Below, in pieces: positions 8,097-64,000 of a stretch of 64,000 bases of DNA; position 1 is the stretch's first letter, and each line of letters starts with the position of its first letter. The notes beneath the pieces were generated by a model. That model was not told where the DNA came from, searched no databases, and saw only the letters and a program-made list of their open reading frames with translations. Source of the stretch: an archaeon. GTDB taxonomy: Archaea; Nanobdellota; Nanobdellia; Pacearchaeales; GW2011-AR1. The stretch spans positions 16,676 through 80,675 of the forward strand of contig JAACWB010000005.1 in the NCBI GenBank assembly GCA_009992215.1, written 5' to 3'. A program made the translations under genes and the position numbers.

Positions 8097-8097
8097 T

Positions 8098-8454: not shown

Positions 8455-8455
8455 T

Positions 8456-8752: not shown

Positions 8753-8754
8753 AG

Positions 8755-8925: not shown

Positions 8926-8926
8926 T

Positions 8927-9598: not shown

Positions 9599-9599
9599 T

Positions 9600-10175: not shown

Positions 10176-10176
10176 T

Positions 10177-10557
10177 TTATTTCTTCTTCACCTTTTCATC
10201 TTTATTGTGTCTTGCTCTTACTCTTGTTGGTGCAAATTCACCAAACTTGTGACCAAGCATTTCCATTGTAATTTCTACTGGAACGAAATCTTTACCGTTG
10301 TAGATTTGTAATTTTATTCCAATTAATCCTGGAACGATTATCAATGTTCTATTGTGAGTTCTAACTGCTCTTTTTCCTTTAGCCAATTGATTGTTTGCTC
10401 TTTTTACAAAGTTTTCATGTTCTTGGAAATTTCTAAGTACAGTTCTTCTTTGTCTTGAACGTAGTAATTTAGCGAACTCTCTTACGTCTAAAGTTTTCAA
10501 CTCTTCTAGAGTTTTACCCTTGAACTTCAATTCTTTTTTCTTTACTTCCATTTCCAT
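10177..10557 (-). CDS. rps19: 30S ribosomal protein uS19
   Basis: IVPGLIGIKLQIYNGKDFVPVEITMEMLGHKFGEFAPTR. Confidence 0.9.
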   Translation of the reverse strand: MEMEVKKKELKFKGKTLEELKTLDVREFAKLLRSRQRRTVLRNFQEHENFVKRANNQLAKGKRAVRTHNRTLIIVPGLIGIKLQIYNGKDFVPVEITMEMLGHKFGEFAPTRVRARHNKDEKVKKK

Positions 10558-10558
10558 T

Positions 10559-11257
10559 TTATTTTCTCTTTCCTGTTTGTCTTGGCCTGATTAAACCTAC
10601 TCTTGCACCTGCCGGAGCATTTCTCTTTGCAATCTTACTCTTAGGGTTCTTTCCTCTACCTGAACCGAATGGGTGATCAATTGCGTTAACCTTTAGAGCA
10701 CTTGTTCTTGGCCATAATTTACTTTTTGTTTTCTTAATGAAATATTGTTTACCCGCTTTAACAATTGGTTTGTCTACTCTTCCTGCACCAGCAATAACTC
10801 CAACGATAGCTTTACAATCTCCGTTGAATTTCTTTTCCTTTTTTGAAGGCATGATTAAGTAAACATCATTACCCATTACTCTATTTACTACTGCTGTATT
10901 TCCACCTGCTTTAATGAATTTTCCTCCATCTCCAGGTCTTGATTCAACACAGTAAACTTTTGTCTTTACAGGCATATCTTTTAATTTTAAAATGTTACCG
11001 TTTTTAATTTCTTTGCCTTCGAAAGAAATTTTTTCTCCTTCAAACATGTTTTTGAAAGCTGGAATATAAAATGATCCTTTTTCTGAATTAACTTTTGCTA
11101 AAGGGCAAGTGTGTGCTCCTGAGTTGAAAAGTTTTGTAACTTCTCCAACACCAGTTAAGTTTGATGCGAATTGTAATTTGTATCTGAAAGCTTTCTTACT
11201 TACTCTATAAGTTGAACTTCCTTTTCCTCTAGCTTGTTGAATAATTCTCTTTCCCAT
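10559..11257 (-). CDS. rpl2: 50S ribosomal protein uL2
   Basis: NAIDHPFGSGRGKNPKSKIAKRNAPAGARVG. Confidence 0.95.
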   Translation of the reverse strand: MGKRIIQQARGKGSSTYRVSKKAFRYKLQFASNLTGVGEVTKLFNSGAHTCPLAKVNSEKGSFYIPAFKNMFEGEKISFEGKEIKNGNILKLKDMPVKTKVYCVESRPGDGGKFIKAGGNTAVVNRVMGNDVYLIMPSKKEKKFNGDCKAIVGVIAGAGRVDKPIVKAGKQYFIKKTKSKLWPRTSALKVNAIDHPFGSGRGKNPKSKIAKRNAPAGARVGLIRPRQTGKRK

Positions 11258-11258
11258 T

Positions 11259-11495
11259 TTACATTAATCCTAATTTAGTTGCAATGTCAATTGCCAAAGT
11301 GTCTCCTTTTAATTTAACATATACATATTTTTTGTTATTCTTAATTAAAGTTCTAATTTTTTCAACTTCTACTTCGAATAATTCTTTAATTTCATTTTTA
11401 ATTTGTTCTTTAGTTTCACGCATTCCTGTTTCGAATGTTAATGTGTTACTTGTTTCAATCATCATTACAGCTTTTTCTGTTAATACTGGCCTCAT
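11259..11495 (-). CDS. rpl23: 50S ribosomal protein uL23
   Basis: LTEKAVMMIETSNTLTFETGMRETKEQIKNEIKELFEVEVEKI. Confidence 0.9.
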   Translation of the reverse strand: MRPVLTEKAVMMIETSNTLTFETGMRETKEQIKNEIKELFEVEVEKIRTLIKNNKKYVYVKLKGDTLAIDIATKLGLM

Positions 11496-12289
11496 TTGAA
11501 TTTTTCTCCTAATTCTTTAATTGCAGTTTCTGTATAAAGAGTTAATCTTCCTACTCCACCGTTAGCTAAGTCATTTACTCCTAATTTTTGAGTAGTTTGA
11601 ACATCGAATGCAGTTGTTTTTATTTTTTCTTCATTTCCAACAACAAGTAGTAAACCTAGAGTTGATTTATATTTTCTTCCTCGAAGTTTTCCAAGTCCGC
11701 TTCTAATTGATTTCTTTTGAATTGCTACTTCATATAAGTTTTCACCTAAAATAGCTTTAAGACTTTGTAACATTTCTTTTGCTTTTAATTCAGTGAATTT
11801 TGATTCAACTACAAATGGAACATTTTCAATTTTTTGTCCATTTAATCTAGCATATCTTTTTGCAATCAAGTCGCCAATTGTTGTAGCTGTTAATGCTGAT
11901 TTTAAGGCTATAGTTAATTCTTTTTTGTTTATACTTGGTAATCCAATCATTGAAGCTACTTTTGGAGGATGTGCTCTTCTACCACCACGAGTGTTTGGTA
12001 CAGTTGCACCAACCCATTGGAATTGAGAACCTCTTCTTGACATTTGTTTACGTGGAATTCTTGACATTCCCCTACCATATTGTGATTTCCAAACTTTTCT
12101 ATGATGTTTTAACACACCGCTAGCTGAAGCTTGATTTCCTGCCATTGGCCCTGGACCGTATGGTTGTTTTACTTTTTTAGCTTCGATTATTTTTTGAATT
12201 AAATCTGTTCTAATTGATTCAGTAAAGCAATTTGGTAGAGCCAAATCCTTTACTTTTTTTCCTTGTACGTCTAATAATTTTGTTTTCAT
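11492..12289 (-). CDS. rpl4: 50S ribosomal protein uL4
   Basis: GRGMSRIPRKQMSRRGSQFQWVGATVPNTRGGRRAHPPK. Confidence 0.9.
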   Translation of the reverse strand: MKTKLLDVQGKKVKDLALPNCFTESIRTDLIQKIIEAKKVKQPYGPGPMAGNQASASGVLKHHRKVWKSQYGRGMSRIPRKQMSRRGSQFQWVGATVPNTRGGRRAHPPKVASMIGLPSINKKELTIALKSALTATTIGDLIAKRYARLNGQKIENVPFVVESKFTELKAKEMLQSLKAILGENLYEVAIQKKSIRSGLGKLRGRKYKSTLGLLLVVGNEEKIKTTAFDVQTTQKLGVNDLANGGVGRLTLYTETAIKELGEKFK

Positions 12290-12290
12290 T

Positions 12291-13229
12291 TTATCTTAAT
12301 TCAATTAATTCATGTTTTTTCTTTAATTGCTTTTTAGTTGGTCTAAGAGCTTGTGTTAAAACAATTTGTCTTTTTGCTGGCCCTTGAACTGAACCTTCTA
12401 AAATAATGTAATCAGTTTTAATGTCTCCGTAATTCTTGATTCCTTTGAATTTGTCTTCTGCTTTTCCTAAATCTAAAACTTTGTTATTGTAAACTACTCT
12501 TGTAAACATTCCTAATTGTCCTGCTTGAGGTACTCTAAAAGTAACTCTTGCTGGATGCCATGGTCCAAGTGAACCTGGTCTTCTTCGTCCTTTTTCTGAT
12601 TTTTGATTCTTTAATTGAATACCAAATCTTTTTACTGGACCTTGAAGTCCTTTTCCTTTAGTTACTCCTCGTAAATCTACTAATTGTCCTGATTCAAATA
12701 CATCAGCAACAGTAATTTCTTTTCCAATTTTTTCTTTTGCAAAAGCTAATTTATCTTCGTAAGTTCCGTTCAAACCTAATTCAGTAATGTCTGGAGTTTT
12801 TTTGAGTCCAGTCTTTTTTACTTGAGAATATGCAATGATTCTAACATCGTCGTATTCTTCAGGTTTAATTGAATCTAATTTCTTTTGAGTTTTTGGTAAT
12901 TTTACTAATTTTTTTAATTCCTTATCTAAACCTTCACCTAAAATTTCTGTTTTTACAATTCCGTCTTTGTATAAACGTACTGAGAAAATTTTCATTGATG
13001 GACATTCAAGAATTGTTACTGGAAAAACTTTCTTTTTTCCTTTAGTCATTGAGTGTTCAGTTGAATCATCAAGGTAAGCTGATTTCATTCCTGCCTTGTA
13101 TGCGATAAATCCCTTTAATGTTTTTTCAGATTTAATAGCATCCCAATTAATTGTTGGTAGAATTTTTGCTGCTCGCTTTCTTGGCCAGAATTGTAGGCTT
13201 CCTTTTCTTGGTGATTTTCTTGTTACCAT
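12291..13229 (-). CDS. rpl3: 50S ribosomal protein uL3 (first gene of the superoperon)
   Basis: RKGSLQFWPRKRA...GVTKGKGLQGPVKRFG...GQLGMFTRV. Confidence 0.95.
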   Translation of the reverse strand: MVTRKSPRKGSLQFWPRKRAAKILPTINWDAIKSEKTLKGFIAYKAGMKSAYLDDSTEHSMTKGKKKVFPVTILECPSMKIFSVRLYKDGIVKTEILGEGLDKELKKLVKLPKTQKKLDSIKPEEYDDVRIIAYSQVKKTGLKKTPDITELGLNGTYEDKLAFAKEKIGKEITVADVFESGQLVDLRGVTKGKGLQGPVKRFGIQLKNQKSEKGRRRPGSLGPWHPARVTFRVPQAGQLGMFTRVVYNNKVLDLGKAEDKFKGIKNYGDIKTDYIILEGSVQGPAKRQIVLTQALRPTKKQLKKKHELIELR

Positions 13230-13370
13230 TTTGTTTTAATATTGACATAATCACAAGTGAGAAATAAGTTCAACTGAGTTGAAGGATTATTTTTACACTC
13301 ATAGATTTCAGAGTCAATCCGTGTTTACAAGTAAACTAAAATTTAGTTTACAATAATTTAGATAAAATTA

Positions 13371-13387
13371 GGTTTATAAAAGTTTCG
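13371..13387 (-). promoter_or_regulatory. Candidate BRE/TATA promoter of the L3-L15 ribosomal operon
   Basis: Minus strand reads CGAAACTTTTATAAACC. A near-identical element lies upstream of rpl1 (24707-24724). It sits about 145 nt upstream of the rpl3 ATG, implying a long leader. Confidence 0.45.
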
Positions 13388-13460
13388 TACACAAAACTTT
13401 AGCTGGAAGCTTGAAGAAAAGAGAAAAAATAAAAAGTTGATTTTTTATTCATATATTATA

Positions 13461-13868
13461 ATGAAAAAATCAAACAATCTTGAAAAAGTTATTTTGCTGA
13501 ATTGGCGTGGAGCTGAAAATGCATATGAGATATACCCTGATGAATATTCCTTGCATCTCAACGAAAATTTGATGATGGAATATATTAAAGAAGAAATGAT
13601 GAAATGTGATTTTGATAATATGTTTTGGTGGATGATATCAAAACTTCCAAAACAAAAATCAGACGTATTTTCAAAAGAGTATTATGATCCAACGGAAGAA
13701 AAAGAACTTGATTTGGAATTACTTGATTATACTTTTGTCAACGTGAATCAAGAGTTATACAAGAAAATTCAAAATTCAGGAAAAGGGCTTTATACTAAAA
13801 ATATAGAATTTAGTGACAATGTCGTTAATCTTTCTTCTGTGATGAATAAACCGTATTATGTTAGATAA
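13461..13868 (+). CDS. Hypothetical protein (start moved to the first ATG, MKKSNNLEK...)
   Basis: The track ORF starts at a TTG (13437); the first ATG is at 13461. No recognisable domain. Confidence 0.45.
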   Translation: MKKSNNLEKVILLNWRGAENAYEIYPDEYSLHLNENLMMEYIKEEMMKCDFDNMFWWMISKLPKQKSDVFSKEYYDPTEEKELDLELLDYTFVNVNQELYKKIQNSGKGLYTKNIEFSDNVVNLSSVMNKPYYVR

Positions 13869-13888
13869 GTTTATTATCTATAAACCTT

Positions 13889-14335
13889 TTATTTTTTAAG
13901 GGTCTTTAATTCTAATTCTCCAATTGATTCTACTAATTTCTTATTTTCTCCTCTTGGAATTTTTTTATAAACTTCTTTTATTCTATTCCAAAAAGTTTTT
14001 CCCAAATCTAAATCCTGTTCAAAAGAATTTTCTTTCAACCAACTTTGCAAACGATCTAATTCGTAAACCTCGCTTGTAAACTGAAAATCATCAACTTTAT
14101 CCAAATTATGGCTGTATGTGAAGAAAACTAAATACATATTTTGGTGTTTGTAATCAAATTCTTTTTCATTAACAAGAACTAAATAGGTACGCCCATAATT
14201 CTGAAAAAATAATCCCTGATATTCATTTGAAATTTTTTTTGGTCTAAGCTCATGGATTTTTGCTCTTTTTAGATTATCAAAACCTTCACCACAAATATCA
14301 CAATAATGTTTAGTTTCAGTTTTTACCATTAACAA
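13889..14335 (-). CDS. Hypothetical protein with an N-terminal C2H-type zinc-finger-like motif
   Basis: YCDICGEGFDNLKRAKIHE gives CxxC-x12-H, but no second His at the canonical spacing. Confidence 0.45.
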   Translation of the reverse strand: MLMVKTETKHYCDICGEGFDNLKRAKIHELRPKKISNEYQGLFFQNYGRTYLVLVNEKEFDYKHQNMYLVFFTYSHNLDKVDDFQFTSEVYELDRLQSWLKENSFEQDLDLGKTFWNRIKEVYKKIPRGENKKLVESIGELELKTLKK

Positions 14336-14369
14336 ATCAAAGTTTTAATCTTTTTAAGAATTATTGTGT

Positions 14370-15071
14370 TCAAGCAGTAAAAGGATATTCTTTTTCTGAC
14401 TTAACATCATCAATGTTTGTTATTCTGACAATCTTTCCTTGTCTTTTTGCCATTTCTCTAATCTTTGCAAAATCTTTTTCATCAGTCTTTGGAAGAATTA
14501 TACTTTCAATTACAAAGTTGTGTTTTATTTCTGCTTTTTTAAAATCGTCTTTTTCAAATACGAACGATTTTCCAATTTCTTTGTCATTTGTGATTAATTT
14601 ACAGAAGTCTGCTTTTGGTTCTTCATCTCCTTTTCCTGGTTTACCTGACTTTGGAGCTTTGTCTTTAATTTTTAGAGTATTATTTTCATCAACATTGAAT
14701 GTTAATCCAAAAAAGGATTTTGGAAATTCGTTAAGTAAAGAAACTAATTCATCACCAGACATTTCTTTATTTATCATATATCTTTTAACTCCTTGAAATT
14801 GTTTTAAATCTTCAAAGTCTAATCTTGTCTTTAAATCAGAAGTGGAAACAATTGCTCCAGTTACTTTAGTTTTTGTGCTTCCTAGTTTTTTTGCCATCAT
14901 CAAAACTAATTCATTACCAAATTCTGAAGAAGTATTAATTGTGTATTTGTCTTTTGTTTTTTTTGCCTTAACTACACCTCTGTCCTTGAAAAGGCCTTTT
15001 GAAAATTTTTGAAATTGAATGTGTGTAAATTCATCCATATTTCCTTCAATTGCTTTTTTTATGAAATTCAT
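14370..15071 (-). CDS. Hypothetical protein (233 aa), Lys-rich, unassigned
   Basis: Complete ORF. TATA-like AAAAGTTTATAAGAC on the minus strand (15093-15107) about 25 nt upstream of the ATG, suggesting a leaderless transcript. Confidence 0.5.
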   Translation of the reverse strand: MNFIKKAIEGNMDEFTHIQFQKFSKGLFKDRGVVKAKKTKDKYTINTSSEFGNELVLMMAKKLGSTKTKVTGAIVSTSDLKTRLDFEDLKQFQGVKRYMINKEMSGDELVSLLNEFPKSFFGLTFNVDENNTLKIKDKAPKSGKPGKGDEEPKADFCKLITNDKEIGKSFVFEKDDFKKAEIKHNFVIESIILPKTDEKDFAKIREMAKRQGKIVRITNIDDVKSEKEYPFTA

Positions 15072-15175
15072 GTAATAGAGAAATTATTTTGTCTTATAAA
15101 CTTTTCTTGAATTTTTTTGCAAAAACATAAGTAACCTTTATTAAGAAAAAATTGTTTTATATAATAGGTGTAAAT

Positions 15176-16249
15176 ATGGCAATGGATAAAAGTTATTTGA
15201 GAAAGGTTACGTCTCTTGTAATTCTTGCAGTATTAATTGTTCTTTCTTATTTTTTACTTAAACCTATTTTAATGTCAATAATTACAGGAATTATCCTTGC
15301 ATTTATTTTCTTACCCGTATTTCAAAAAATAAATAAAAAAATTCCCTCAAGAAACGTCTCGGTTACCATAGTTTGTATTCTTTTAATTTTACTAATTGTA
15401 ATTCCTGTTTGGTTTTTGACACCAGTTTTACTTAATCAGTCAATTGAAATTTTCCTAGCTTCACAAAAAATTGATTTTGTGACTCCCCTACAAAATGCTT
15501 TTCCAAAATTATTTTCAATTGGAACATTTTCAAATGAAATCACTTCGGTAGTTTATAGTTTTATTACAAAAATTACTAATGGTGCAATGAATATGATTTC
15601 AAAGGTTCTTTTGAATTTTCCAACTTTATTTTTACAATTTCTTGTAACTTTTTTCACCTTTTTCTTTGTTCTTAGAGACAGCGAGAAATTTGTAGAGTAC
15701 ATTCAAAGTTTACTTCCTTTCCCAAAAGAAATTGAAACTAAATTGTTTAAGTCTTCTCGTGACATTACATTTTCCGTTTTATATGGTCAAGTAATTATTG
15801 GTATTTTGCAAGGTATTTTTGCTGGAATTTCCTTTTTCTTATTTGGTGTTGGAAATGCTTTGTTCTTGACATTACTTGCAATTATTGCTGGAATTTTCCC
15901 AATCATTGGTACAACTGTTGTTTGGATTCCTGTGGCTATTTATTTATTTGTTAACGGACAACTTTGGCCTGCAATAGGAGTTACATTCTTTGGATTAATT
16001 GCTTCCTTTTTTGAAAATGCCGTTAAACCGGTATTTGTTTCAAAGAGAACAAATGTTCACTCGAGTATAATTTTACTTGGAATGGTTGGAGGATTATTTA
16101 TGTTTGGAATTTTAGGTGTAATTTTAGGTCCACTTATCCTTGCTTATCTGTTAATTGTTCTTGAAATTTATAGAGACAAGAGAACTCCGAGTTATTTAAT
16201 ACAAAATCCAGAAGATCAAGAGATAGATATAAAAATGGGTTATTTCTAA
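15176..16249 (+). CDS. AI-2E family transporter (PerM/UPF0118-like membrane protein)
   Basis: Multi-TM protein with LTLLAIIAGIFPIIGTTVVWIPVAIYLF, typical of the AI-2E family. ATG at 15176 is preceded by AGGTG. Confidence 0.75.
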   Translation: MAMDKSYLRKVTSLVILAVLIVLSYFLLKPILMSIITGIILAFIFLPVFQKINKKIPSRNVSVTIVCILLILLIVIPVWFLTPVLLNQSIEIFLASQKIDFVTPLQNAFPKLFSIGTFSNEITSVVYSFITKITNGAMNMISKVLLNFPTLFLQFLVTFFTFFFVLRDSEKFVEYIQSLLPFPKEIETKLFKSSRDITFSVLYGQVIIGILQGIFAGISFFLFGVGNALFLTLLAIIAGIFPIIGTTVVWIPVAIYLFVNGQLWPAIGVTFFGLIASFFENAVKPVFVSKRTNVHSSIILLGMVGGLFMFGILGVILGPLILAYLLIVLEIYRDKRTPSYLIQNPEDQEIDIKMGYF

Positions 16250-22660: not shown

Positions 22661-22691
22661 CTAAACTTCTGTTCTAACTAGAGAAGTTTAG
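22661..22691 (-). terminator. Hairpin terminator downstream of the L1-P0-P1 operon
   Basis: CTAAACTTCT-(11 nt)-AGAAGTTTAG, a 10-bp stem. On the minus strand a T-rich run (CTTTTTCTCC) follows it, about 35 nt after the P1 stop. Confidence 0.55.
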
Positions 22692-26599: not shown

Positions 26600-26896
26600 A
26601 TGGTATCTAAAAAAACTGTAAAAAAAGAAAGTGAAGGTTTGAAGGAAAATTCAAACTATGGACTTATTTCTTATATTTTGGCTATTGTTGCAATTGTAGA
26701 AGCAATTATTTCACCTATGGCCGGGATTATTTTAGGAATTATTGGGCTTAGTTTTTCTGTTAAAGAAAAAAGTAAACTTGCTTTGAAATCAAAAAAACTT
26801 AATATTATTGCAATTGTTTTAGGAGTGTTATTATTTGTTGCTATTTTAGCTTCATCTGTTTTACTTCCTTCAAGCATTTATGGAGGAACACAATGA
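26600..26896 (+). CDS. Small membrane protein (2-3 TM; start at MVSKK, preceded by GAGGT)
   Basis: TATA-like GAACTTTTATAAATAAG at 26551-26567. Its stop overlaps the next ATG (ATGA). Confidence 0.45.
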   Translation: MVSKKTVKKESEGLKENSNYGLISYILAIVAIVEAIISPMAGIILGIIGLSFSVKEKSKLALKSKKLNIIAIVLGVLLFVAILASSVLLPSSIYGGTQ

Positions 26897-27435
26897 AATC
26901 TAAACAAGGTGCAATGGAGATGAGTGTTGGAACAATTGTTACAATTGTTTTACTTATGAGTGTTTTAGTTTTAGGTTTATTTTTGGTAAAAAATATTTTT
27001 TCAAGTGCGAAGGGTGCAGTTGATTTAACTGATCAACAATTAACAAAAGAAATTCAAAAACTTTTCAGTGAAGATTCAAAAGTTGTTATTTATCCTACTA
27101 CAAGATATGTTGAAATAAAAGCAGGAAAAAGCGAAGATGTTGCAATTGGAATTAAGAACACTGGAAAAACAAGTAGTTCAGCAACAAGTTTTTCTTATAC
27201 TGTTACTGCTGGAGAAAATGATTGTGGAATAAGTCCGCAGGAACAATTAAGTTGGATTAGACTTGGAAAAGAAAAAACAAATATTCCTATTGCAATTGGA
27301 GACACTGAAGGATTAAGAGTAAGATTACAAATTCCTGAAGGGACTCCTTTATGTTTAGCTAGTTTTGATGTTACTGTCCAAGCTGGAGGATCAAGTTATG
27401 ACAGAGATTACTTTGATATTCAAGTAACTGCATAA
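26893..27435 (+). CDS. Archaeal type IV pilin-like protein (class III signal peptide)
   Basis: N-terminus MKSKQGAMEMSVGTIVTIVLLMSVLVLGLFLV: short charged leader, G/A cleavage context, conserved Glu, then a hydrophobic helix. Confidence 0.6.
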   Translation: MKSKQGAMEMSVGTIVTIVLLMSVLVLGLFLVKNIFSSAKGAVDLTDQQLTKEIQKLFSEDSKVVIYPTTRYVEIKAGKSEDVAIGIKNTGKTSSSATSFSYTVTAGENDCGISPQEQLSWIRLGKEKTNIPIAIGDTEGLRVRLQIPEGTPLCLASFDVTVQAGGSSYDRDYFDIQVTA

Positions 27436-57063: not shown

Positions 57064-57540
57064 ATGAGAATTTTGTCAAGAGAAGAAGCAAATTTTTTTA
57101 TTAAAGAGTGTATTTCTGTTGCAAAGAAAGCAACTTGCTCTCGTTTTAAATGTGGAAGTATAATTGTTAAGGACGGAAAAATAATAGGAAGTGGTTTTAA
57201 TTCTCCGCCAAAGGACCTAGAGAGTCAAAGAAGGTGTTTTAATTCTAAGGCTGATTATGATGTGAAAGTTACGGATAAAACTTGTTGTGTTCACGCTGAA
57301 CAAAGGGCGATGTTTGATTCTCTACGAAGGAACCCTAAAAAAATTAAAGGAAGTACCTTATATTTTGTTAGAATTAATGAAGAAGGTGAAGTTCTTTTTG
57401 CGGGAAAACCTTATTGTACTATTTGTTCAAAGATGGCACTTGACATTGGAATAAAAGAGTTTGTTTTATTTCACGAAGACAAAGCAATAGCTTATGAAGT
57501 GGAAGAATATAATAATTTTAGTTATGGGTATTTCAGTTAA
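57064..57540 (+). CDS. dCMP deaminase (cytidine/deoxycytidylate deaminase family)
   Basis: Zinc motifs CVHAEQRA (HAE) and PYCTICSKM (PCxxC). Confidence 0.85.
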   Translation: MRILSREEANFFIKECISVAKKATCSRFKCGSIIVKDGKIIGSGFNSPPKDLESQRRCFNSKADYDVKVTDKTCCVHAEQRAMFDSLRRNPKKIKGSTLYFVRINEEGEVLFAGKPYCTICSKMALDIGIKEFVLFHEDKAIAYEVEEYNNFSYGYFS

Positions 57541-57588
57541 TTTTACAAAAAAATTTGGCAGGGTTTTTCAGAAAATTTTGCAAAAAAA

Positions 57589-57610
57589 AGGACAACTGTT
57601 AAGCTGTCCT
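57589..57610. terminator. Bidirectional hairpin between convergent genes
   Basis: AGGACA-(10 nt)-TGTCCT, flanked by an A tract (57582-57588) and a T tract (57611-57617). Confidence 0.45.
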
Positions 57611-57626
57611 TTTTTTAATTTGTTAA

Positions 57627-58064
57627 TTATTTTATTACCCAAATAAAATCCATCTGGGTAAAGTAAATTATTATCCAAAGAAAAAGTGTGTAGATTACTG
57701 AAAAATATAATCCTTTTATCACGCCTTCTTTTTTGTCAACTTCCCGATAAGTTTTTACTGAACCAACAATAAAAACTGCAAGAAGCGTTAATGCAATTCC
57801 CCGGCATAAATCAACATTTTTAATTCCAAGGTCATTAATCCATGCAAGGAACCACAGCAAACCAGAATAAATCCAAATTGCATGCAAATTTTTCTTGTTA
57901 CTAAAAAAGGATTTTAATGAGTAAAGAATAAATCCCCCTAACATTAATTTTGAAAGAAGACTTATTTCACGAGGAATTTCTTTTGAGCTATTCAAGAAGA
58001 TATATACCAAAGCGAAAGCTCCAAGAATAACAAAAAATTTGTCAATGATTTTTTCTGTTTTCAT
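57627..58064 (-). CDS. Hypothetical 4-TM membrane protein
   Basis: ORF with four hydrophobic segments. Last gene of the tightly packed minus-strand block. Confidence 0.45.
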   Translation of the reverse strand: MKTEKIIDKFFVILGAFALVYIFLNSSKEIPREISLLSKLMLGGFILYSLKSFFSNKKNLHAIWIYSGLLWFLAWINDLGIKNVDLCRGIALTLLAVFIVGSVKTYREVDKKEGVIKGLYFSVIYTLFLWIIIYFTQMDFIWVIK

Positions 58065-58067
58065 TTA

Positions 58068-58559
58068 TTATTTTTTAGATTTGTTAATTAATTGCTCTAA
58101 CCAGTTTTTCAGAAAATTGAATTCTGGATTTCTTTCAAGATTGTTTAAAACAAATTCATGACGATGAATCAATTCCTCAAAAGGAATTTCTTCTCCTTTA
58201 TTGTAAGATGCTTTAATTGAATCCAAAACTAGCCGAGCATAATGGTTTGACATTTTTTCTACTTCTTTTTCTAAATCGGTTTCTTTGGAATAGTTTACAG
58301 AAGGAAGATTTAGTTGAAACAAAAAACTTTCTGAATATAAATAACATTTATATCTACTTTGAATAAAATATTCCGAATTTCCTTCAGAAGGATTTTTGTA
58401 TTTTTCTATTAAATCAAAAATTCTATCTAAAGAAAGAGGAGGAATATTTTTCTGTCCGTTATTTGTTTTAACTTCAAGTGAATTTTCTAATACCCTTTCA
58501 AATAAATCAATCATTAAAGGGGCTGAACCAATTCTTTCATTTAATATTTTGTTTGGCAT
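58068..58559 (-). CDS. Hypothetical soluble protein (163 aa)
   Basis: ORF; 1-nt gap to the upstream gene. Confidence 0.45.
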   Translation of the reverse strand: MPNKILNERIGSAPLMIDLFERVLENSLEVKTNNGQKNIPPLSLDRIFDLIEKYKNPSEGNSEYFIQSRYKCYLYSESFLFQLNLPSVNYSKETDLEKEVEKMSNHYARLVLDSIKASYNKGEEIPFEELIHRHEFVLNNLERNPEFNFLKNWLEQLINKSKK

Positions 58560-58560
58560 T

Positions 58561-59196
58561 TTATTTAATTTTAAAAAGTTGAATATTTAATCCAGCAGAA
58601 AGAGAAAGAACACCAAAATCAATTTTGTCTTTGAATTTATTTTCACCTTCGATTATGTAATAATCATAATCTAGTAGTATGAACAATTCAAATGGCTGGC
58701 AACAAAAATTTGCTCCGATTCCGATTCCAAGTAATGAACCTGCACCTTTTGATTCGGTAAACAATTCTTTATTTGATGGGACTTCTCTTGCTTTTGTATA
58801 TCCCCCTCTTAAAGAAAGGAAAGGATAGACTTCAGAGAGAACAGGTTTTTTTGAAACTATTTTTGATTCAAGCCCATATGTATTGAAAGATAAATCAAAA
58901 GTTTCTTCGCTGAATCCATATTCTTCTTCAAGCCAAAGATAATCTGTTACATAAGAAAAATTATAGAACGCGAATATTTCTAAATTGTCAAGTCTTACAC
59001 CGCCCCTTAAACTCAAAGTTGCTGGATACAATTCATACTGTTCGGCTAATTTTCCAGAGAGTATTTTAGAAGAACCAAATTCTCCTCCCACAACAAAAGA
59101 TAATTTTGTTGTGTCTTTTAATTCAGTATTAAAACACTGAGAAAAAGAAGGGAGGGAGAACATAATAACAATTGAAATTAAAATTAATTTTTTCAT
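58561..59196 (-). CDS. Secreted beta-rich protein, small beta-barrel/porin-like (tentative)
   Basis: Signal peptide MKKLILISIVIMFSLPSFSQ. Alternating hydrophobic pattern, Gly/aromatic-rich, ending LSAGLNIQLFKIK. Confidence 0.5.
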   Translation of the reverse strand: MKKLILISIVIMFSLPSFSQCFNTELKDTTKLSFVVGGEFGSSKILSGKLAEQYELYPATLSLRGGVRLDNLEIFAFYNFSYVTDYLWLEEEYGFSEETFDLSFNTYGLESKIVSKKPVLSEVYPFLSLRGGYTKAREVPSNKELFTESKGAGSLLGIGIGANFCCQPFELFILLDYDYYIIEGENKFKDKIDFGVLSLSAGLNIQLFKIK

Positions 59197-59198
59197 AA

Positions 59199-60272
59199 TT
59201 ATTTGTTTTTTATAAGAACTCTTGCTTGCGTGGCATATGTTGAAATTATTCGTCCAGGATTATAGAATATCTTTTCTTTAGGAAAAGAAACATCTACTGA
59301 ATTGTTTGAGAGATTGATTAATCGTGCCAAATATTTCCCTTTTAATTTTATTTCTTTAAAATTGTTTTGTGTTTTATTAAAAAAATATTCTACCAATTCT
59401 TCATCACTTGCATTTTCAAAAAATTCTTCCTCTTTCTTTTCTTGTTTTCTTTTAAAATAATATCTTATTTCTGCAATAATAAAAGAAATTGCATAAGAAA
59501 ATAATGTCCATAAATAAAATTGTAATAAGTATTCATTTGGAATTTTACTTCCAAGAGGACTAATTTTTTGTAAAAGATATAATGCAATAAAGAAAAGAGG
59601 TATCAGTAAAATAGAAAAAACAGTGAAAGATTTAATTATCTTTTCTGAATTAGAGAGAATAACTAAAAACACTATTCCTACAAATATCAAGGAAAATTCT
59701 ATTGTTATTACAAATACTTCAATTGTAATTGAATTTGATAAATAGAAAAAGAAAGATACAATCAAAATTGATATTCCCTCAAACAAATAAAAGAATTTTT
59801 TTCTTCTGAATAATGGGCGACTCTCCCATACGCTGTTTAAAGAAAAATTGTACCAAAAGCCTTTATTGAATCCTAAAGACAGAACAAACACAAGGAAAAA
59901 CGAAAGCCACAGTTCAGAATATTTCCAGTTAGAGGAAAAGGGTTTATCTACAACAGAATAACCGTCTTTTTCATTGTAATAAAATTTTGTGATTACTCCT
60001 TGTGAAATTATTCTTGAAGGAAAAAAAGATTGAATAAAAGTTGTATCAGTTTCTTTTTTCTCCAAGTAACCAATTTTAAACAAACGCACTGTTTCATATT
60101 TGTCTAAACAGAAGGGGTAAATTTCAAGAGTATCAAGGGTTTCTGTTTTAATTGTTTTTCTCACAAGAACCATATTTTTTTGACATAATGTGTCAAATAA
60201 GATTATGTCTTCTTGACTGAAAACCAAAAATCCTGAAACCAATAAATAAATTAAAATAATTAGTTTTTTCAT
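59199..60272 (-). CDS. Hypothetical membrane protein: signal peptide, extracytoplasmic domain, about 6 TM, charged C-terminal domain
   Basis: MKKLIILIYLLVSGFLVFSQ, hydrophobic core at residues about 125-265, then KRKQEKKEEEFFENASDEE. Confidence 0.5.
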   Translation of the reverse strand: MKKLIILIYLLVSGFLVFSQEDIILFDTLCQKNMVLVRKTIKTETLDTLEIYPFCLDKYETVRLFKIGYLEKKETDTTFIQSFFPSRIISQGVITKFYYNEKDGYSVVDKPFSSNWKYSELWLSFFLVFVLSLGFNKGFWYNFSLNSVWESRPLFRRKKFFYLFEGISILIVSFFFYLSNSITIEVFVITIEFSLIFVGIVFLVILSNSEKIIKSFTVFSILLIPLFFIALYLLQKISPLGSKIPNEYLLQFYLWTLFSYAISFIIAEIRYYFKRKQEKKEEEFFENASDEELVEYFFNKTQNNFKEIKLKGKYLARLINLSNNSVDVSFPKEKIFYNPGRIISTYATQARVLIKNK

Positions 60273-60294
60273 AACGATAAAAGTTTTTAGTTAG

Positions 60295-60765
60295 TTATTT
60301 TAATTTTATTTGAACCACTTCCAAATCAATTATATTCTCTGAGGGTCCAGATTTTTCAATAATAAAATAATATTCACTTTGTTTTTCATTCCATTCTTTT
60401 TCAAATTGAGTGGAAGTTTTTTTCCATTCTCTTTCAAAGTTAAATATCGCCATTAATTTGTCTATTGTTGGCGCAGATTCTGAATCTGAATATTTATCTA
60501 TTTTTAATTTAACTTGAAAAAGGGTGGGACTTTTTTCATATTTATTTTCTTTAATCATAGAAATAAATCCTCTACGAGGAACAAGCAATTTTACTTCTTT
60601 TGGAACATCTTTACTTTCAAATATATTTACATAATCTGAAAAAGAAATGATCCCTTCAAAAGAACTAATGTGTTTTTTGAAATTTTCTTCTGTTGCTTGA
60701 ATTAAGCCTTCATGTACTTTTCTTGCAAAATACAAAACGGTCAAGTAATAATTTGTTGTTTTCAT
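60295..60765 (-). CDS. Hypothetical soluble protein (156 aa)
   Basis: ORF only. Confidence 0.45.
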   Translation of the reverse strand: MKTTNYYLTVLYFARKVHEGLIQATEENFKKHISSFEGIISFSDYVNIFESKDVPKEVKLLVPRRGFISMIKENKYEKSPTLFQVKLKIDKYSDSESAPTIDKLMAIFNFEREWKKTSTQFEKEWNEKQSEYYFIIEKSGPSENIIDLEVVQIKLK

Positions 60766-60794
60766 AATTTTAGATTTATTTTAGTTAATGTTAA

Positions 60795-61250
60795 TTAATT
60801 TAAATTTATTGATAATCCTAATTTTATCTCGGGATAATTTCCAATTTTGTTAAAACAGTATCTTGGTAGAATTAAAATTCTCGTTCTGTTATTTATCGGC
60901 ATCCCTATTTTGATATAGGTTGCATTCGATAATTCTCCTCCACCAATTCCAAATTTTATTCCTGGTTCAAGAAGCAAATTTGAAGAAGTGATATATTCAT
61001 AACCCAGCCCAAACATAAAATTATCAAAATTTTTGTAATGCTCGTAAGAAAAATTTAAGACAAAATCTTTTGCCCAATAAACAAAATAATTTTTTGTTTT
61101 AAATTCTCTTAATGTTATTGAGAGATTTGTTTCATAATCTGTTATGAATTGAGGGATATTTGTTGTTAAGTCCAATCTTTTAATAGATTGAGAATTTGAA
61201 GTTATGTTTATTCCTAGAACAAACATGAAAATTAAAATTGCTTTTTTCAT
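60795..61250 (-). CDS. Secreted beta-rich protein (tentative small beta-barrel)
   Basis: Signal peptide MKKAILIFMFVLGINITSNSQ; ends EIKLGLSINLN. Confidence 0.5.
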   Translation of the reverse strand: MKKAILIFMFVLGINITSNSQSIKRLDLTTNIPQFITDYETNLSITLREFKTKNYFVYWAKDFVLNFSYEHYKNFDNFMFGLGYEYITSSNLLLEPGIKFGIGGGELSNATYIKIGMPINNRTRILILPRYCFNKIGNYPEIKLGLSINLN

Positions 61251-61280
61251 TAAATTTTGTTTTTAGTTAATATTAATTTA

Positions 61281-62081
61281 TTATTCATTTTTAATTTCTG
61301 AACATTCAAAATATTTATTATACTCTTTGAAAATTAAATTATTTGATTTTTTAGAAATTTCACAGGCATTTTCTAATCTTTCTTTTGTTGTTTCACTTGT
61401 TTTTCCCCAATAAATTGAAGCTCGCAAAACATTTGATTTATCTTCCATAACCCCTTCAAATGAGCAATTTCCACCAAACCAGGGAGTTTGTATACGATAA
61501 AAATCTTCCCCTGATATTGGATGAGAATGAATTGCAATTAATTGATTTTCAAATTTGTAAATAAAATATCCAGAGGAATCAATTATTTCCAATTTGTATG
61601 CTTTTTCAAATTTTATTTTTAACCCAAAATTATTTGCAATTACTGTGTCTTTTGTCGAGGTTAAATATACTCCATAATTTATTTCTCCTTGTTTATGAAC
61701 TAAATCGTCATCATGAGTATACGGACAAATGTAGAGGGTTGAATCATAATATTTGAAAGCCCATCTTCCTGAATTTTTCATGTGACTTCCCAAAACTTCA
61801 CTTGTTAATCCTCCAATTTTATTCCAATCTCCATTACATCCTTCAATTAATTCTTCATGTTTATGATTCTTGTCAATTAAAACATAATAGGACCAAACAG
61901 AAGAACTTTGTATTGAAAAAGGTGTTTTCATTCCATCTGAAGTTTCTATTCTATATTCATGATTTCCCACTTCAACTGTAAACTTTGAAATATCTGAAAA
62001 ATCGTAATCAAACAATTCCAAAATTTCTTCACAAGAAAAAAATAATAAAGTTGAAATTAAAATTAAAAATAATTTTTTCAT
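61281..62081 (-). CDS. Putative lipoprotein (266 aa)
   Basis: MKKLFLILISTLLFFSCEE, a lipobox-like L-F-F-S-C. Confidence 0.5.
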   Translation of the reverse strand: MKKLFLILISTLLFFSCEEILELFDYDFSDISKFTVEVGNHEYRIETSDGMKTPFSIQSSSVWSYYVLIDKNHKHEELIEGCNGDWNKIGGLTSEVLGSHMKNSGRWAFKYYDSTLYICPYTHDDDLVHKQGEINYGVYLTSTKDTVIANNFGLKIKFEKAYKLEIIDSSGYFIYKFENQLIAIHSHPISGEDFYRIQTPWFGGNCSFEGVMEDKSNVLRASIYWGKTSETTKERLENACEISKKSNNLIFKEYNKYFECSEIKNE

Positions 62082-62154
62082 TGTTATTTTTTTAGTTAGT
62101 TAATGTTAATTGAGTTTATTTTGTTACAATTTAATGTATAATTATTTTCAAAAG

Positions 62155-62184
62155 AAAAAAGCTTCTCTAGAAGAGAAGCTTTTG
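62155..62184 (-). terminator. Hairpin terminator after thyA
   Basis: A tract, GCTTCTC-TAGAA-GAGAAGC, T tract. Lies 6 nt beyond the thyA stop. Confidence 0.55.
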
Positions 62185-62189
62185 ATTAA

Positions 62190-62984
62190 TTAAACTGATA
62201 TCTCTCCTTTAATATTTGGATGAGGATTATATCCTTCCAATTGAAAATCATCAAATTCGAATGAAAAAATATCTTTTTTATTCGGATTGATTTTTAGTAT
62301 CGGCAACTCTCTTGGTTCTCTTGACAATTGCAATTTTACTTGTTCGTAATGATTTTTGTAAATATGTGCATCACCCAAAGTATGAATAAATTCGTATGGC
62401 TCCAGTCCTGTAGCTTGTGCAATCATCTTTAATAAAATAGCATACGAAGCTATGTTAAACGGAACTCCTAAAAATATATCGGCACTTCGCTGGTATAATT
62501 GACAAGATAGTTTTCCATCAGCAACATAGAATTGAAAAAGAATGTGACATGGAGGAAGTGCCATATTTTTTATATCAGCAACATTCCACGCACTTACAAT
62601 ATGCCGACGTGAATCAGGATTATTTTTAATTGAGTGAATAATTTCAGAAATTTGGTCTATATGTTGTCCATTTGGTGCTGGCCATGAACGCCATTGATAT
62701 CCATAAATATTTCCAAGGTCTCCGTCTTCATTTGCCCACTCATCCCAAATCTTTACACCATGATCATTTAGATACTTAATATTTGTATCTCCTTTCAAGA
62801 ACCAAAGAAGTTCATAAATTATTGATTTTAAGTGTAGCTTTTTTGTTGTGAGTAAGGGAAACCCGTTTTGTAAATTAAAACGCATTTGATAACCAAAAGT
62901 ACTTTTTGTTCCAGTTCCTGTTCTATCACTTTTTTCTATGCCATTTTTCATGACATGGTCAAGCAAGCCTAAGTATTGTTTCAT
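62190..62984 (-). CDS. thyA: Thymidylate synthase ThyA
   Basis: [36 protein letters not shown]...[12 protein letters not shown]...[14 protein letters not shown], the classical ThyA motifs. Confidence 0.95.
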
Positions 62985-63053
62985 AAGATTTTTGTTTACA
63001 AAAATCTAGCTGGAATCTAGAAGCTGGAAGCTTGAAGTCCAGGCTAGACTTGG

Positions 63054-63263
63054 TTAAAAATTATTTTTATTTATTCTTTCATTTAGTGCTTCTTTGAAGT
63101 CTGGATGAATCTCTTGTGAATTTATACATTCTTCTAGTTCTTCTTTATTTTCACATAAAGAGATTTCGTTTAAAATTAGTACAAATTCATCGTCATCAAT
63201 CATTCCTTTTTCTCTTAATTTTGAATAATTGACTAAATTTTCAAAAAAGTTTTCTTTTTTCAT
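63054..63263 (-). CDS. Hypothetical small acidic protein (69 aa)
   Basis: ORF only. Confidence 0.35.
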   Translation of the reverse strand: MKKENFFENLVNYSKLREKGMIDDDEFVLILNEISLCENKEELEECINSQEIHPDFKEALNERINKNNF

Positions 63264-63280
63264 AATTTTAATTTTAAAAA

Positions 63281-63304
63281 AACTTCTCCAGTTAAGGAGA
63301 AGTT
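63281..63304 (-). terminator. Hairpin between the lipoprotein gene and the 69-aa ORF
   Basis: AACTTCTCC-AGTTAA-GGAGAAGTT with flanking A and T tracts. Confidence 0.5.
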
Positions 63305-63324
63305 TTTGGTTAAATTAAATTGAT

Positions 63325-64000
63325 TTATTTAGAAACGATTTTTTTATTAAGAAGAGCCTTTATTTTTCTTGCCGCTTCTGACTGTTCGCGATTCAACCAA
63401 GGTTCGTATTGATTGTTATACATCCAGTAATCTTTGCCATCAGTTACGAAAAATCTTGGCCCTTCGTTTAAGTAAATTGTATCTGAATTAAGAGCAAATT
63501 CTTTAAAATATTCAAGACTGCTGTTTAGGGGATATTTAACTTTTCCCTTTAGTAAAACATATGGATCTAATTCAGACGCTTCAATCCAGGGCATTAATCC
63601 TGCCTTTGAATAAAACTCTTTTTTTCCTTCAATCGTAAATTTTTTCGTGAAAAATTTAATCCCTTTTGTTTCTATATATCCATTTCTTGTTTGGATTTTC
63701 TTTCCCTCCAAGGTTCCAGGCAAAGATTTGTTAAGAGATAATTTGTATGATTTTTCTTTGTACACATAGGTTATTTTTTCACCAGCTGGAATCACCGATG
63801 AAATTATCTCTTTTGGGGAATTTTCCTTGTTTACAAAAATACAGCTGTCAACATAATTCTTATCAACAACAATTCCAACAATGGAATTAATAGCTGCATC
63901 TGTTTCAATCTTTGCCTTTTCGGCCGCTTCTTTTTGTTTTTTCTTACCACAACTTAATGTGAACAATAAAGAAACAATTACTAAATAAAATAATACTTTT
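63325..64000 (-). CDS. Putative lipoprotein (N-terminal Met lies beyond the right window edge)
   Basis: The frame stays open upstream of the track start: ...KVLFYLVIVSLLFTLSCGKKKQ, a signal peptide plus lipobox. The track start at 63966 is a TTG inside the signal peptide. Confidence 0.5.
   Translation of the reverse strand, partial: KVLFYLVIVSLLFTLSCGKKKQKEAAEKAKIETDAAINSIVGIVVDKNYVDSCIFVNKENSPKEIISSVIPAGEKITYVYKEKSYKLSLNKSLPGTLEGKKIQTRNGYIETKGIKFFTKKFTIEGKKEFYSKAGLMPWIEASELDPYVLLKGKVKYPLNSSLEYFKEFALNSDTIYLNEGPRFFVTDGKDYWMYNNQYEPWLNREQSEAARKIKALLNKKIVSK

Follow-up and report, generated by a model that had tools for sequence, protein, structure and literature searches.

Gene structure of the block

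The window analysed here is a stretch of 64,000 nucleotides from a DPANN archaeon. Towards its end seven tightly packed ORFs lie on the minus strand, separated by 3, 1, 2, 22, 29 and 30 nt (Table 1), as proposed in the first-pass annotation, which had placed seven genes here with spacers of 1-30 nt. The hairpin at the island edge, which had been described as bidirectional, is present as well and is likely a bidirectional terminator. The last gene before the island encodes a dCMP/cytidine deaminase and is convergent with the island.

Table 1. Features at the island edge and in the adjoining flank. Slashes mark predicted signal peptide cleavage.
Feature	Position	Strand	Basis and remarks
dCMP/cytidine deaminase	57064..57540	+	PF00383; weak ComEB-like NCBIfam match
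Hairpin A8-GGACA...TGTCC-T7	~57589..57610		Read in sequence
145-aa polytopic membrane protein	57627..58064	-	3-4 TM segments (hydropathy scan)
163-aa protein without signal peptide	58068..58559	-	ORF and profile searches
211-aa secreted beta-rich protein	58561..59196	-	Predicted cleavage PSFS/Q; resembles 8-stranded OMP beta-barrels
357-aa protein	59199..60272	-	Signal peptide LVFS/Q, 5 TM, charged tail
156-aa protein without signal peptide	60295..60765	-	No family match
151-aa secreted beta-rich protein	60795..61250	-	Signal SNS/Q; no Pfam match
266-aa lipobox protein	61281..62081	-	LLFFS/C; predicted ConA-like lectin/glucanase jelly roll
TTAACTAACTAA motif	62092..62103	-	Stops in three frames, then A-run
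Terminator-like hairpin AAAAGCTTCTCT...AGAGAAGCTTTT	62157..62183	-	Downstream of thyA
Thymidylate synthase ThyA, bacterial-type	62190..62984	-	Pfam E 9e-130
16-mer AGCTGGAAGCTTGAAG	63022..63037		Upstream of thyA; exact copy upstream of rpl3 (13401-13416)
69-aa acidic protein	63054..63263	-	No family match
AACTTCT...AGAAGTT hairpin	63281..63304		Same stem as hairpin after the L12 gene
226-aa lipobox protein	63325..64000	-	FTLS/CGKKK; first 5 bases past window end

None of the seven proteins reached a curated Pfam or NCBIfam threshold, in line with the earlier impression that no family could be named for them. Global protein databases were searched with the 211-aa and 266-aa proteins, profile libraries and related loci with the other five, and IMG/VR additionally with the 357-aa protein; in none of these searches did any of the seven proteins yield a bacterial homologue. 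The 145-aa protein had no family and no homologue among the related loci compared, the profile libraries yielded no family for the 163-aa and 357-aa proteins, and the latter had no relative in IMG/VR.

The hydropathy scan gave three to four TM segments for the 145-aa protein, annotated before as a 4-TM protein. For the 357-aa protein, described as having a signal peptide, about six TM segments and a charged tail, we found the signal peptide, five TM segments and the tail. A predicted exported domain of ~95 aa lies between the signal peptide and the TM segments, and the last 90 residues contain 18 Lys and Arg and 13 Asp and Glu residues (hydropathy/composition scan); the tail is predicted to be cytoplasmic. 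The N-termini MKK...PSFS/Q, ...LVFS/Q, ...SNS/Q and LLFFS/C likewise agree with the MKK...SQ signal peptides and the LLFFSC lipobox noted in the first pass.

The block is one end of a larger island

Whereas the seven ORFs were recovered, the limits of the block as a unit were not, as island-type genes go on past 62081 and thyA, reach the window end and continue for another 10 kb or more. With ~31 co-oriented minus-strand genes the island measures at least 16 kb, and the seven genes lie at its rpoD-proximal end. Among the ~31 genes, which are covered by L017 (positions 1-15637), only ThyA and SiaC gave a Pfam match. The predicted products are almost exclusively Sec-exported, lipid-anchored and polytopic membrane proteins. 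Of the machinery for export and glycosylation, SecD/F and AglB are encoded in the window, and SecY just upstream of it.

The S13-S4-S11-RpoD operon has the island immediately downstream, and the same locus is occupied by different sets of secreted proteins in two related Nanoarchaeota genomes. In L011 (Nanoarchaeota GH57; RpoD 60% identical) rps13-rps4-rps11-rpoD is followed by a 9.4 kb island, whose secreted proteins with MKK...SQ/AQ signals are unlike the set in the window, and then by thyA. In L025 (RpoD 66% identical) the island sits between rpoD and rpl18e-rpl13-rps9, splitting the S13-S4-S11-RpoD/L18e-L13-S9 operon. Three genes are kept in relatives, the 226-aa gene upstream of the 266-aa gene and the 151-aa gene directly downstream of it, with 151-aa homologues sharing 40-48% identity (L025/L024, L015 and L016). 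Core proteins of the window and L025 are 66-85% identical, as compared with 32%, 65% and 48% for this conserved triad (226, 266 and 151 aa), and L025 has no counterpart of the other island genes. As judged from these comparisons, turnover of the island content appears to be much faster than that of the core genes on its flank, and a conserved hot spot downstream of the S13-S4-S11-RpoD operon is the best explanation for the site.

The L025 island also includes a HerA/DUF87 ATPase, with a fragment of a tyrosine integrase and a protein with a Recombinase domain nearby, which, together with the split ribosomal operon, is compatible with an integrated mobile element. According to this explanation a provirus or plasmid remnant was inserted downstream of rpoD, the ORFan membrane proteins being element genes and thyA, which is embedded in the island, and the adjoining dCMP deaminase gene being auxiliary nucleotide-metabolism genes. 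The ~31 small co-oriented ORFans with their 1-30 nt spacers would fit, as would several short contigs that stop at 57537 or 57762, where there is no repeat. However, ten island proteins gave no PHROG match, the two proteins searched had no IMG/VR relative, and the 16 kb of island sequence covered lacks genes for capsid, terminase, replication and integrase; neither a long att-like direct repeat nor a flanking tRNA was found. Moreover, the composition is indistinguishable from that of the host and the surface-protein triad is syntenic in relatives, rendering such an origin improbable.

The junction is contiguous and of native composition

The abrupt change of gene content and a Logan contig (L003) that stops at 57537 would be in accordance with an assembly or binning chimera, in which an archaeal contig is fused with bacterial DNA at ~57.5 kb, an option the first-pass annotation had already doubted. 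The junction was, however, crossed at 100% identity with 0 mismatches in four assemblies that had been made independently of one another, with different samples and assemblers (98 kb from ENA, 86 kb from JGI, an 11.9-kb Logan contig and the NCBI MAG contig), and we rejected the chimera, which is also contradicted by the same arrangement in related archaea and by composition and motifs common to core genome and island, leaving it practically no chance. In NCBI the protein 'GW932_01405 [archaeon]' is located on a 111-kb contig.

That the block is as AT-rich as its surroundings is borne out by its GC content (0.26-0.30 vs 0.25-0.32 elsewhere in the window), and the suggested tetranucleotide comparison between the block and the remaining window gave r = 0.981, within the range of other 4.5-kb chunks (0.947 to 0.989). 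Both proposed shared motifs were recovered: the 16-mer upstream of thyA is identical to that upstream of rpl3, and the AACTTCT...AGAAGTT hairpin shared with the L12 terminator occurs at exactly two sites (22664-22688 and 63281-63304), where 0.04 are expected by chance. TTAACTAACTAA sits just upstream of the 266-aa gene and is repeated before several island genes. The best reading is that all seven ORFs are real genes and native to this DPANN archaeon (GTDB Nanoarchaeota).

The 266-aa protein models as a ConA-like jelly roll

The AF2 model of the 266-aa protein had a pLDDT of 72 and a pTM of 0.73, with one of five models being confident. Foldseek matched it to GH16, PL7, CBM66 and galectin structures in the PDB and to ConA-like/LamG proteins in the viral library, with probabilities of ~1.0, TM-scores of 0.3-0.46 and sequence identities of 5-15%. 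The predicted fold is thus a jelly roll of the ConA-like lectin/glucanase type, sharing the all-beta architecture of that superfamily (GH16 laminarinases/porphyranases, PL7 alginate lyases, galectins, CBM66, LamG) and differing from it in its low identity and TM-scores. As the GH16 ExDxxE and PL7 QIH catalytic motifs are absent, a binding role is as likely as a catalytic one.

In the family, which has 15 members, the lipobox Cys is invariant and most proteins carry Tat signals; one member (L027) neighbours archaeal-type TrpRS, DTD2 and a KaiC-like ATPase. A lipobox does not mark a protein as bacterial, because lipoproteins are reported to be prevalent in DPANN, where AliA is also reported (PMC12462473). 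Archaeal lipobox lipoproteins (Haloferax volcanii Sec/Tat; AliA/AliB pathway, PMC12462473) have an invariant Cys after a small residue, like the 266-aa protein, and haloarchaeal ones combine a twin-arginine signal with an LLSSC-type lipobox, as do most 266-aa relatives. In contrast to these, the window protein has non-canonical residues at -3 and -2 (F, F), and its lipidation is predicted.

The 211-aa protein resembles outer membrane beta-barrels

The 211-aa protein aligned with positions 15-173 of the 175 of PF13505 (OMP_b-brl) with an E-value of 6.2e-5 and 23.7 bits, below the cut-off of 28.7. The match depends on residue order, since nine shuffles and one reversal gave 0 matches. With its signal peptide, a mature part of ~190 residues, the near-full profile alignment and its richness in Gly and aromatic residues the protein resembles 8-stranded OMP beta-barrels and is a candidate OMP-like beta-barrel. 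It differs from the family in scoring under the gathering threshold and in its archaeal host, in which neither an outer membrane nor BAM machinery is known or was seen. When 1.84 billion representatives were searched in full with HMMER, a single remote homologue emerged, P0003 (33% identity, E 3e-8), and no bacterial one. P0003 is encoded on a 3-kb contig, ends in ...LIRIF and does not match PF13505. No PDB relative of the 211-aa protein was found and structure prediction gave no confident model. For two further proteins on archaeal contigs PF13505 was the sole match.

Signal peptides with Gln at +1 and the origin of the island

Among the 21 predicted signal-peptidase-I substrates of the islands 16 have Gln at +1, against a Gln background of 2.4%. 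Most island type-I signals share the MKK n-region, hydrophobic core, small residue at -1 and Gln at +1 with Bacteroidetes Q-rule substrates (PMC5837995, PMC10653852). The Q-rule is described as Bacteroidetes-specific (PMC5837995), whereas the host here is an archaeon, in which no glutaminyl cyclase was identified. The few secreted candidates seen outside the islands lack Gln at +1, so the trait may be confined to the island and not extend to the whole genome, a pattern that would point to a foreign origin. Both Gln at +1 and the OMP_b-brl likeness are unexpected for an archaeal envelope. The island ThyA is 63% identical to E. coli ThyA without gaps, and its best PDB matches are to ThyA chains in the 264-aa length class, probably those of the E. 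coli enzyme.

These observations, including the order-dependent PF13505 match and the two further archaeal-contig proteins, speak for an ancient inter-domain transfer of the exported proteins, including those with Gln +1 signals, the OMP-like barrel and the lipoproteins, from a diderm bacterium such as Bacteroidota, the genes having since gained host-like composition, diverged beyond recognition and been kept as a host-interaction module. Transfer had been among the options of the first-pass annotation; it found no direct support for the seven proteins themselves, and the bacterial-type thyA, Gln at +1 and the OMP_b-brl likeness keep it as a minority view. Against it stand the lone remote homologue of the 211-aa protein on its 3-kb contig, 266-aa relatives in archaeal contexts, native composition and regulatory motifs, lipoboxes that are normal in DPANN (PMC12462473) and the fact that three archaeal genomes differing by 34-40% in RpoD have comparable islands at this locus. 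Altogether, we consider inter-domain transfer unlikely.

Discussion

We favour, with a probability of roughly 0.6, a native, lineage-specific envelope and host-interaction island, one end of which is formed by the seven ORFs. This reading builds on the gene structure, contiguity, locus conservation, family relations and one protein's fold class established above. Of the origins put forward initially, an archaeal envelope system agrees best with the same-locus islands in Nanoarchaeota and with the 266-aa family in archaeal contexts. Part of the report by Castelle et al. (2021, PMC8204110) describes DPANN lineage-specific families as mostly membrane-bound or extracellular. Such families and variable surface-protein islands resemble the one found here in being unannotatable, confined to a narrow clade, predicted to be exported or membrane-bound and encoded in a small genome, whereas that part of the report describes no rpoD-operon hot spot, Gln +1 signals or OMP_b-brl-like protein.

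We infer that the island proteins are exported, processed and lipidated, lie at the surface and interact with a host. They would be exported by the archaeon's own Sec system, cleavage of the type-I signals would expose an N-terminal Gln, and the 266-aa and 226-aa proteins would be lipid-anchored at the lipobox Cys, so that the products jointly decorate the cell envelope. There, the 266-aa protein might act as a surface-tethered ConA-like module that binds or cleaves glycans, with the two small beta-rich secreted proteins, one of 151 aa and the OMP-barrel-like one of 211 aa, as putative partners. The 357-aa membrane protein, its head exported and its charged tail in the cytoplasm, may be receptor-like. 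The island would probably serve in attachment to a host cell surface or in scavenging from it.

Continuity of the assembly at the island edge

The seven minus-strand ORFs described in the first-pass annotation are present and as tightly packed as claimed, with spacers of 3, 1, 2, 22, 29 and 30 nt, and the reported hairpin near the edge of the block was found as an A-run/hairpin/T-run at ~57589-57610. An assembly chimera, which would make the joining of these ORFs to archaeal core genes an artefact, had been disfavoured from the start, and rightly so. Three assemblies independent of the NCBI MAG cross the junction at 57.5 kb with zero mismatches to the window, linking the block to the dCMP deaminase gene, rpoD, rps11, rps4 and rps13, and 18 contigs drawn from Logan, ENA, JGI and NCBI encode the exact 211-aa protein. 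With four concordant assemblies against it, the NCBI MAG contig included, the probability of a chimera is vanishingly small, and the locus provides a worked example of an apparent inter-domain chimera that is real genome structure.

Some contigs stop at the island's proximal edge: L003 at 57537, and L005, L008 and L009, produced by different assemblers, all at exactly 57762. As no repeats that would explain these ends were found at either position, strain-level variation at this edge is possible. At the other end of the block, contig L020 (JGI 3300008085; window 61522-64000) carries one mismatch to the window. It coincides with a split of the 266-aa ORF, which is called there as two shorter genes of 62 and 86 aa, and could reflect either a nonsense variant or an error of sequencing.

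In composition the block resembles the rest of the window, as had been stated (tetranucleotide r = 0.981, with values of 0.947 to 0.989 for other 4.5-kb chunks of the window), and a compositional anomaly was rejected. Two shared elements put forward earlier were also recovered, namely an exact 16-mer upstream of both rpl3 and thyA and the L12-type terminator stem, an AACTTCT...AGAAGTT hairpin with only two occurrences (0.04 expected), one following the L12 gene and one at 63281-63304. The 16-mer may be a promoter or regulator site common to rpl3 and thyA; at thyA a degenerate tandem copy stands before AGCTGGAAGCTTGAAG.

Positions of the features discussed (window coordinates unless a contig is named)
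Feature	Position	Remarks
Seven minus-strand ORFs (145, 163, 211, 357, 156, 151 and 266 aa)	57627-58064, 58068-58559, 58561-59196, 59199-60272, 60295-60765, 60795-61250, 61281-62081	block
thyA, bacterial-type thymidylate synthase	62190-62984	embedded among surface-protein genes
16-mer AGCTGGAAGCTTGAAG	13401-13416 (upstream of rpl3) and in 63008-63037 (upstream of thyA)	sequence identity
Short intergenic motif TTAACTAACTAAAAA	62092-62103, 60287-60298; L017 3032, 4268, 5498	
180-aa protein, starts MKSKQGAMEMSVGTIVTIVLL	26893-27435	no further export signal in the 57 kb ahead of the island
SiaC-family regulatory phosphoprotein homologue	L017 1227-1607 (beyond window end)	PF09345, E 2e-16
L025 island	L025 2420-14663	splits the S13-S4-S11-RpoD / L18e-L13-S9 gene order
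MFS transporter, 195-aa Tat-lipobox ConA-like protein and ~196-aa secreted protein	L027 6496-9180; L032 3489-6189	conserved trio
L017, ENA k141_559424		97,969 bp; crosses junction
L018, JGI Ga0100403_1000079		86,251 bp; crosses junction
L001, Logan SRR6053076		11,876 bp; crosses junction

Extent and gene content of the island

Contrary to what had been proposed, the block is not a seven-gene unit. Small genes on the same strand continue past 62081 with thyA, a 69-aa ORF and the gene for a 226-aa lipobox protein, and past the window end with at least 20 further genes coding mostly for polytopic membrane proteins, so that the unit is an island of some 31 genes spanning no less than 16 kb; its distal end would lie roughly 7-8 kb further along the ENA contig. 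Two more proteins past the window end bear signals (ISA/Q and TRG/Q, the slash marking the predicted cut), and the SiaC homologue is the sole Pfam match among the genes there. Its gene is surrounded by ORFan membrane-protein genes of the island.

Hydropathy scans gave 3-4 TM segments for the 145-aa protein and five for the 357-aa protein, in which the predicted signal peptide and charged tail were both found. In three proteins of the block an MKK start leads into a hydrophobic core, after which come a small residue and Gln (PSFS/Q, LVFS/Q and SNS/Q), and the 266-aa protein carries the lipobox LLFFS/C, all in agreement with the first-pass annotation. So is the lack of a nameable family: none of the seven proteins has a significant match in Pfam, NCBIfam, PHROG or PADLOC, the one sub-threshold exception being the 211-aa protein with PF13505. 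For the 145-, 163-, 357- and 156-aa proteins no counterpart was found among the related loci compared. Before the island, the 57 kb of the window contain no MKK...SQ-type signals, and the 10 kb upstream of the window hold core genes only. The 180-aa protein (no Pfam match) starts with what looks, from its residues, like an archaeal class III (pilin-type) signal, a class different from the signals with Gln after the cut.

We considered whether the island might be a degraded integrated element. No PHROG match at E <= 0.01 for ten island proteins, no IMG/VR match for the two proteins searched there and no long direct repeats were found, the nearest tRNA is 7 kb away, and the island, over the at least 16 kb seen, holds no integrase, structural or replication hallmark, which makes this origin distinctly unlikely. 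A provirus or defence island was likewise rejected, with PHROGs, PADLOC and IMG/VR giving nothing for the block, and so were att-like repeats, the search for which returned only the short recurring intergenic motif TTAACTAACTAA. The motif TTAACTAACTAAAAA places a stop codon in each of the three frames ahead of an A-run, lies 5' of the start codon in at least five island genes and occurs once in the rest of the window, with one mismatch.

The same locus in related archaea

In Nanoarchaeota archaeon GH57, the closest GTDB genome (contig L011; RpoD 60% identical), rps13-rps4-rps11-rpoD is followed by a 9.4-kb stretch in which minus-strand genes encode secreted proteins unrelated to those of the window, with the signals LISEA/Q, NAYS/Q and SAFS/Q, and then by a thyA 70% identical to that of the window. 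The order S13-S4-S11-RpoD-L18e-L13-S9 is widely conserved across archaea. In L025, a 111,667-bp JGI contig of a related archaeon (RpoD 66% identical), an island lies between rpoD and rpl18e-rpl13-rps9. It encodes a 668-aa HerA/DUF87 ATPase and four more signal, lipobox or TM proteins, keeps homologues of the 226-, 266- and 151-aa proteins in unchanged order, and has neither thyA nor deaminase. The same triad also occurs on two short contigs (L015 and L016). Core proteins of the window and L025 share 66-85% identity, compared with 32%, 65% and 48% for the triad (226, 266 and 151 aa). The locus is conserved; the content of the island is not. Just beyond rps9, L025 carries a tyrosine-integrase fragment and a Recombinase-domain protein (189-864).

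The window thyA product is 63% identical to E. coli ThyA, gap-free over all 264 residues, and in the PDB it best matches ThyA chains that fall into the same 264-aa length class and are read here as the E. coli enzyme. As thyA is bacterial-type and present in the window and GH57 and absent from the L025 island, the locus accepts transferred genes. The deaminase is weakly ComEB-like.

Predicted export signals with Gln at +1

Signal candidates were selected by a basic n-region, an uncharged hydrophobic core, the absence of a lipobox and the absence of a later TM segment, with the 357-aa protein as the one exception to the last rule. Across the islands covered (window/L017, L025, L011, L014, L015 and L016), 16 of the 21 predicted SPase-I candidates have Gln at +1 with a small residue at -1, including all five in the island of the window, against a Gln background of 2.4% in these proteomes. 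A binomial test still gives P below 1e-12 when the background is raised to 10%, for cases that are not all independent, the 151-aa family being counted three times. Judged from these predicted cuts, Gln would thus occupy +1 in most type-I signals of the islands, as in the Q-rule of Bacteroidetes. Unlike there, the organism is not a member of the Bacteroidetes: the flanks are archaeal, with RpoD (subunit D), S13/S4/S11 and L21e, and with AglB encoded in the window and SecY immediately before its start. Secreted candidates outside the islands are few and include a GH3-like protein in L011 without the Gln pattern. On an unrelated Euryarchaeota contig one protein shows it.

One rival reading is that the exported proteins were acquired long ago from a diderm bacterium. 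The lipobox is no sign of a bacterial origin, since lipoproteins are reported to be prevalent in DPANN, as is AliA, the candidate enzyme for their lipidation (PMC12462473). We consider the transfer unlikely.

The 266-aa lipobox protein

A profile search with the 266-aa protein yielded 14 relatives, giving a 15-member family in which the lipobox Cys is invariant (15/15), as is a second pair of Cys. Most relatives are 195 aa long and combine a twin-arginine signal with an LLSSC-type lipobox. At the end of the signal peptide, for which the lipobox pattern is [LVI][ASTVI][GAS]C, relatives read LLSSC, LLQAC and PLAGC; the window protein has LFFSC, with Ser at -1, and the 226-aa protein TLSC. Both the 266-aa and the 226-aa protein are predicted lipobox lipoproteins. 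In both 195-aa contexts examined (L027 and L032) and in L026 an MFS transporter gene precedes the family gene, and the L027 neighbours include an archaeal-type TrpRS, an archaeal D-aminoacyl-tRNA deacylase and a KaiC-like ATPase.

AF2, supplied with the 15-sequence alignment, produced one good model of the 266-aa protein and four poor ones, the good model being all-beta with a pLDDT of 72 and a pTM of 0.73. Foldseek returned 78 PDB matches at E <= 1e-3, the best 50 of 78 being nearly all ConA-like (GH16 porphyranase and laminarinase, PL7 and PL36 alginate lyases, CBM66 and galectins), with E values down to 4e-5 and TM scores of only 0.3-0.46. In the viral library the model matched ConA-like and LamG proteins and tail-fibre domains. 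The modelled fold is thus predicted to be the jelly-roll beta-sandwich of the ConA-like superfamily. Unlike GH16 and PL7 enzymes, the window protein lacks their catalytic motifs, E-x-D-x(x)-E and Q(I/V)H, in a regex search, and on the strength of the model it reads as a lipid-anchored glycan-binding module that possibly also cleaves glycans. QIH is a signature of PL7 alginate lyases. A stretch SQIHP, usually within DSQIHPP, is found in 11 (P0006-P0015, P0017) of the 12 relatives of 188 to 197 aa and is not conserved in the window protein.

Putative barrel-like secreted proteins

The first-pass annotation had also proposed two mini-barrels. Of these, the 211-aa protein has a sub-threshold, order-dependent match to PF13505 (OMP_b-brl), and the 151-aa protein has no Pfam match. 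The 211-aa protein aligns to profile positions 15-173 of 175 at 23.7 bits (E 6.2e-5), short of the curated gathering threshold of 28.7 bits. Nine composition-preserving shuffles with the signal peptide kept, and the reversed sequence, gave no Pfam match at E <= 1, so that it is the order of the residues that produces the match. Searched in full with HMMER, 1.84 billion representatives yielded a single true homologue, P0003 (192 aa; 33% identity; E 3e-8; C-terminus ...GGVLIRIF), whose gene lies on a 3-kb contig with three more ...SQ/AQ-signal proteins; P0003 itself does not match PF13505 at E <= 1, nor was a PF13505 match found for the 151-aa and 172-aa proteins. Sequence and profile searches of the PDB with the 211-aa family matched nothing, and single-sequence AF2 of the 211-aa protein was unusable (pLDDT 29).

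Alternating hydrophobicity gave z-scores of 2.4 (211 aa) and 2.1 (151 aa), compared with 1.7 for OmpX, 3.5 for OmpA and -2.1 to 1.2 for non-barrels; this global score is compatible with barrels, barely discriminating and weakly supportive. A count of amphipathic-strand segments was dropped, as barrels and soluble controls came out alike. The ~90 kb of the genome covered showed no BamA-like gene. Paralogy of the 211-, 151- and 172-aa proteins and the 196-aa protein of L027 was rejected: BLASTP and hhalign find similarity in the signal peptide only, so that they are not one expanded family.

In L027 and L032, contigs of other DPANN-like archaea, the gene for the ~196-aa protein (TVSKA/Q) lies directly 3' of the ConA-like lipoprotein gene, a pairing that mirrors the 266-aa/151-aa pair of the window, and the sole Pfam match of the two ~196-aa proteins is again PF13505 (E 0.015 and 0.006). 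OMP-like barrels are plausible, though unproven, and soluble 8-stranded binders are an equally good alternative.

Discussion

The reading we favour, with a probability of about 0.6, sees here a native island for the envelope or for host interaction, specific to the lineage and located at a recombination hot spot downstream of rpoD. For export its products would use the Sec machinery of the cell itself (SecD/F in the window, SecY just upstream). This reading agrees with PMC8204110, in which DPANN lineage-specific families are described as mostly membrane-bound or extracellular.

A bolder proposal, to which we give little credence, is a DPANN clade with true OMP-type 8-stranded beta-barrels, lectin-like lipoprotein partners and Bacteroidetes-style Gln+1 export. 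If true, it would imply an unrecognised outer envelope layer or effectors inserting into the outer membrane of a diderm host, possibly one of the Bacteroidota, and barrels acting as effectors in such a host would be the first molecular handle on a DPANN-bacterium symbiosis. A Bacteroidetes-like Gln+1 rule and OMP-barrel-like secreted proteins adjoining lipoproteins would, if confirmed, be new for Archaea, and both bear on bacterial hosts for some DPANN, a question posed as open in PMC8204110.

What raises the island above routine DPANN hypotheticals is the combination of a fixed address, Gln+1 signals and a recurring lipoprotein/OMP_b-brl-like pairing in archaeal contigs. DPANN archaea depend on host cells, and the molecules of their contact surface are, to our knowledge, mostly unknown. 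The island, rapidly changing in itself, gathers the exported and membrane proteins of the clade at one fixed genomic address and is therefore a tractable place to search for host-recognition genes.
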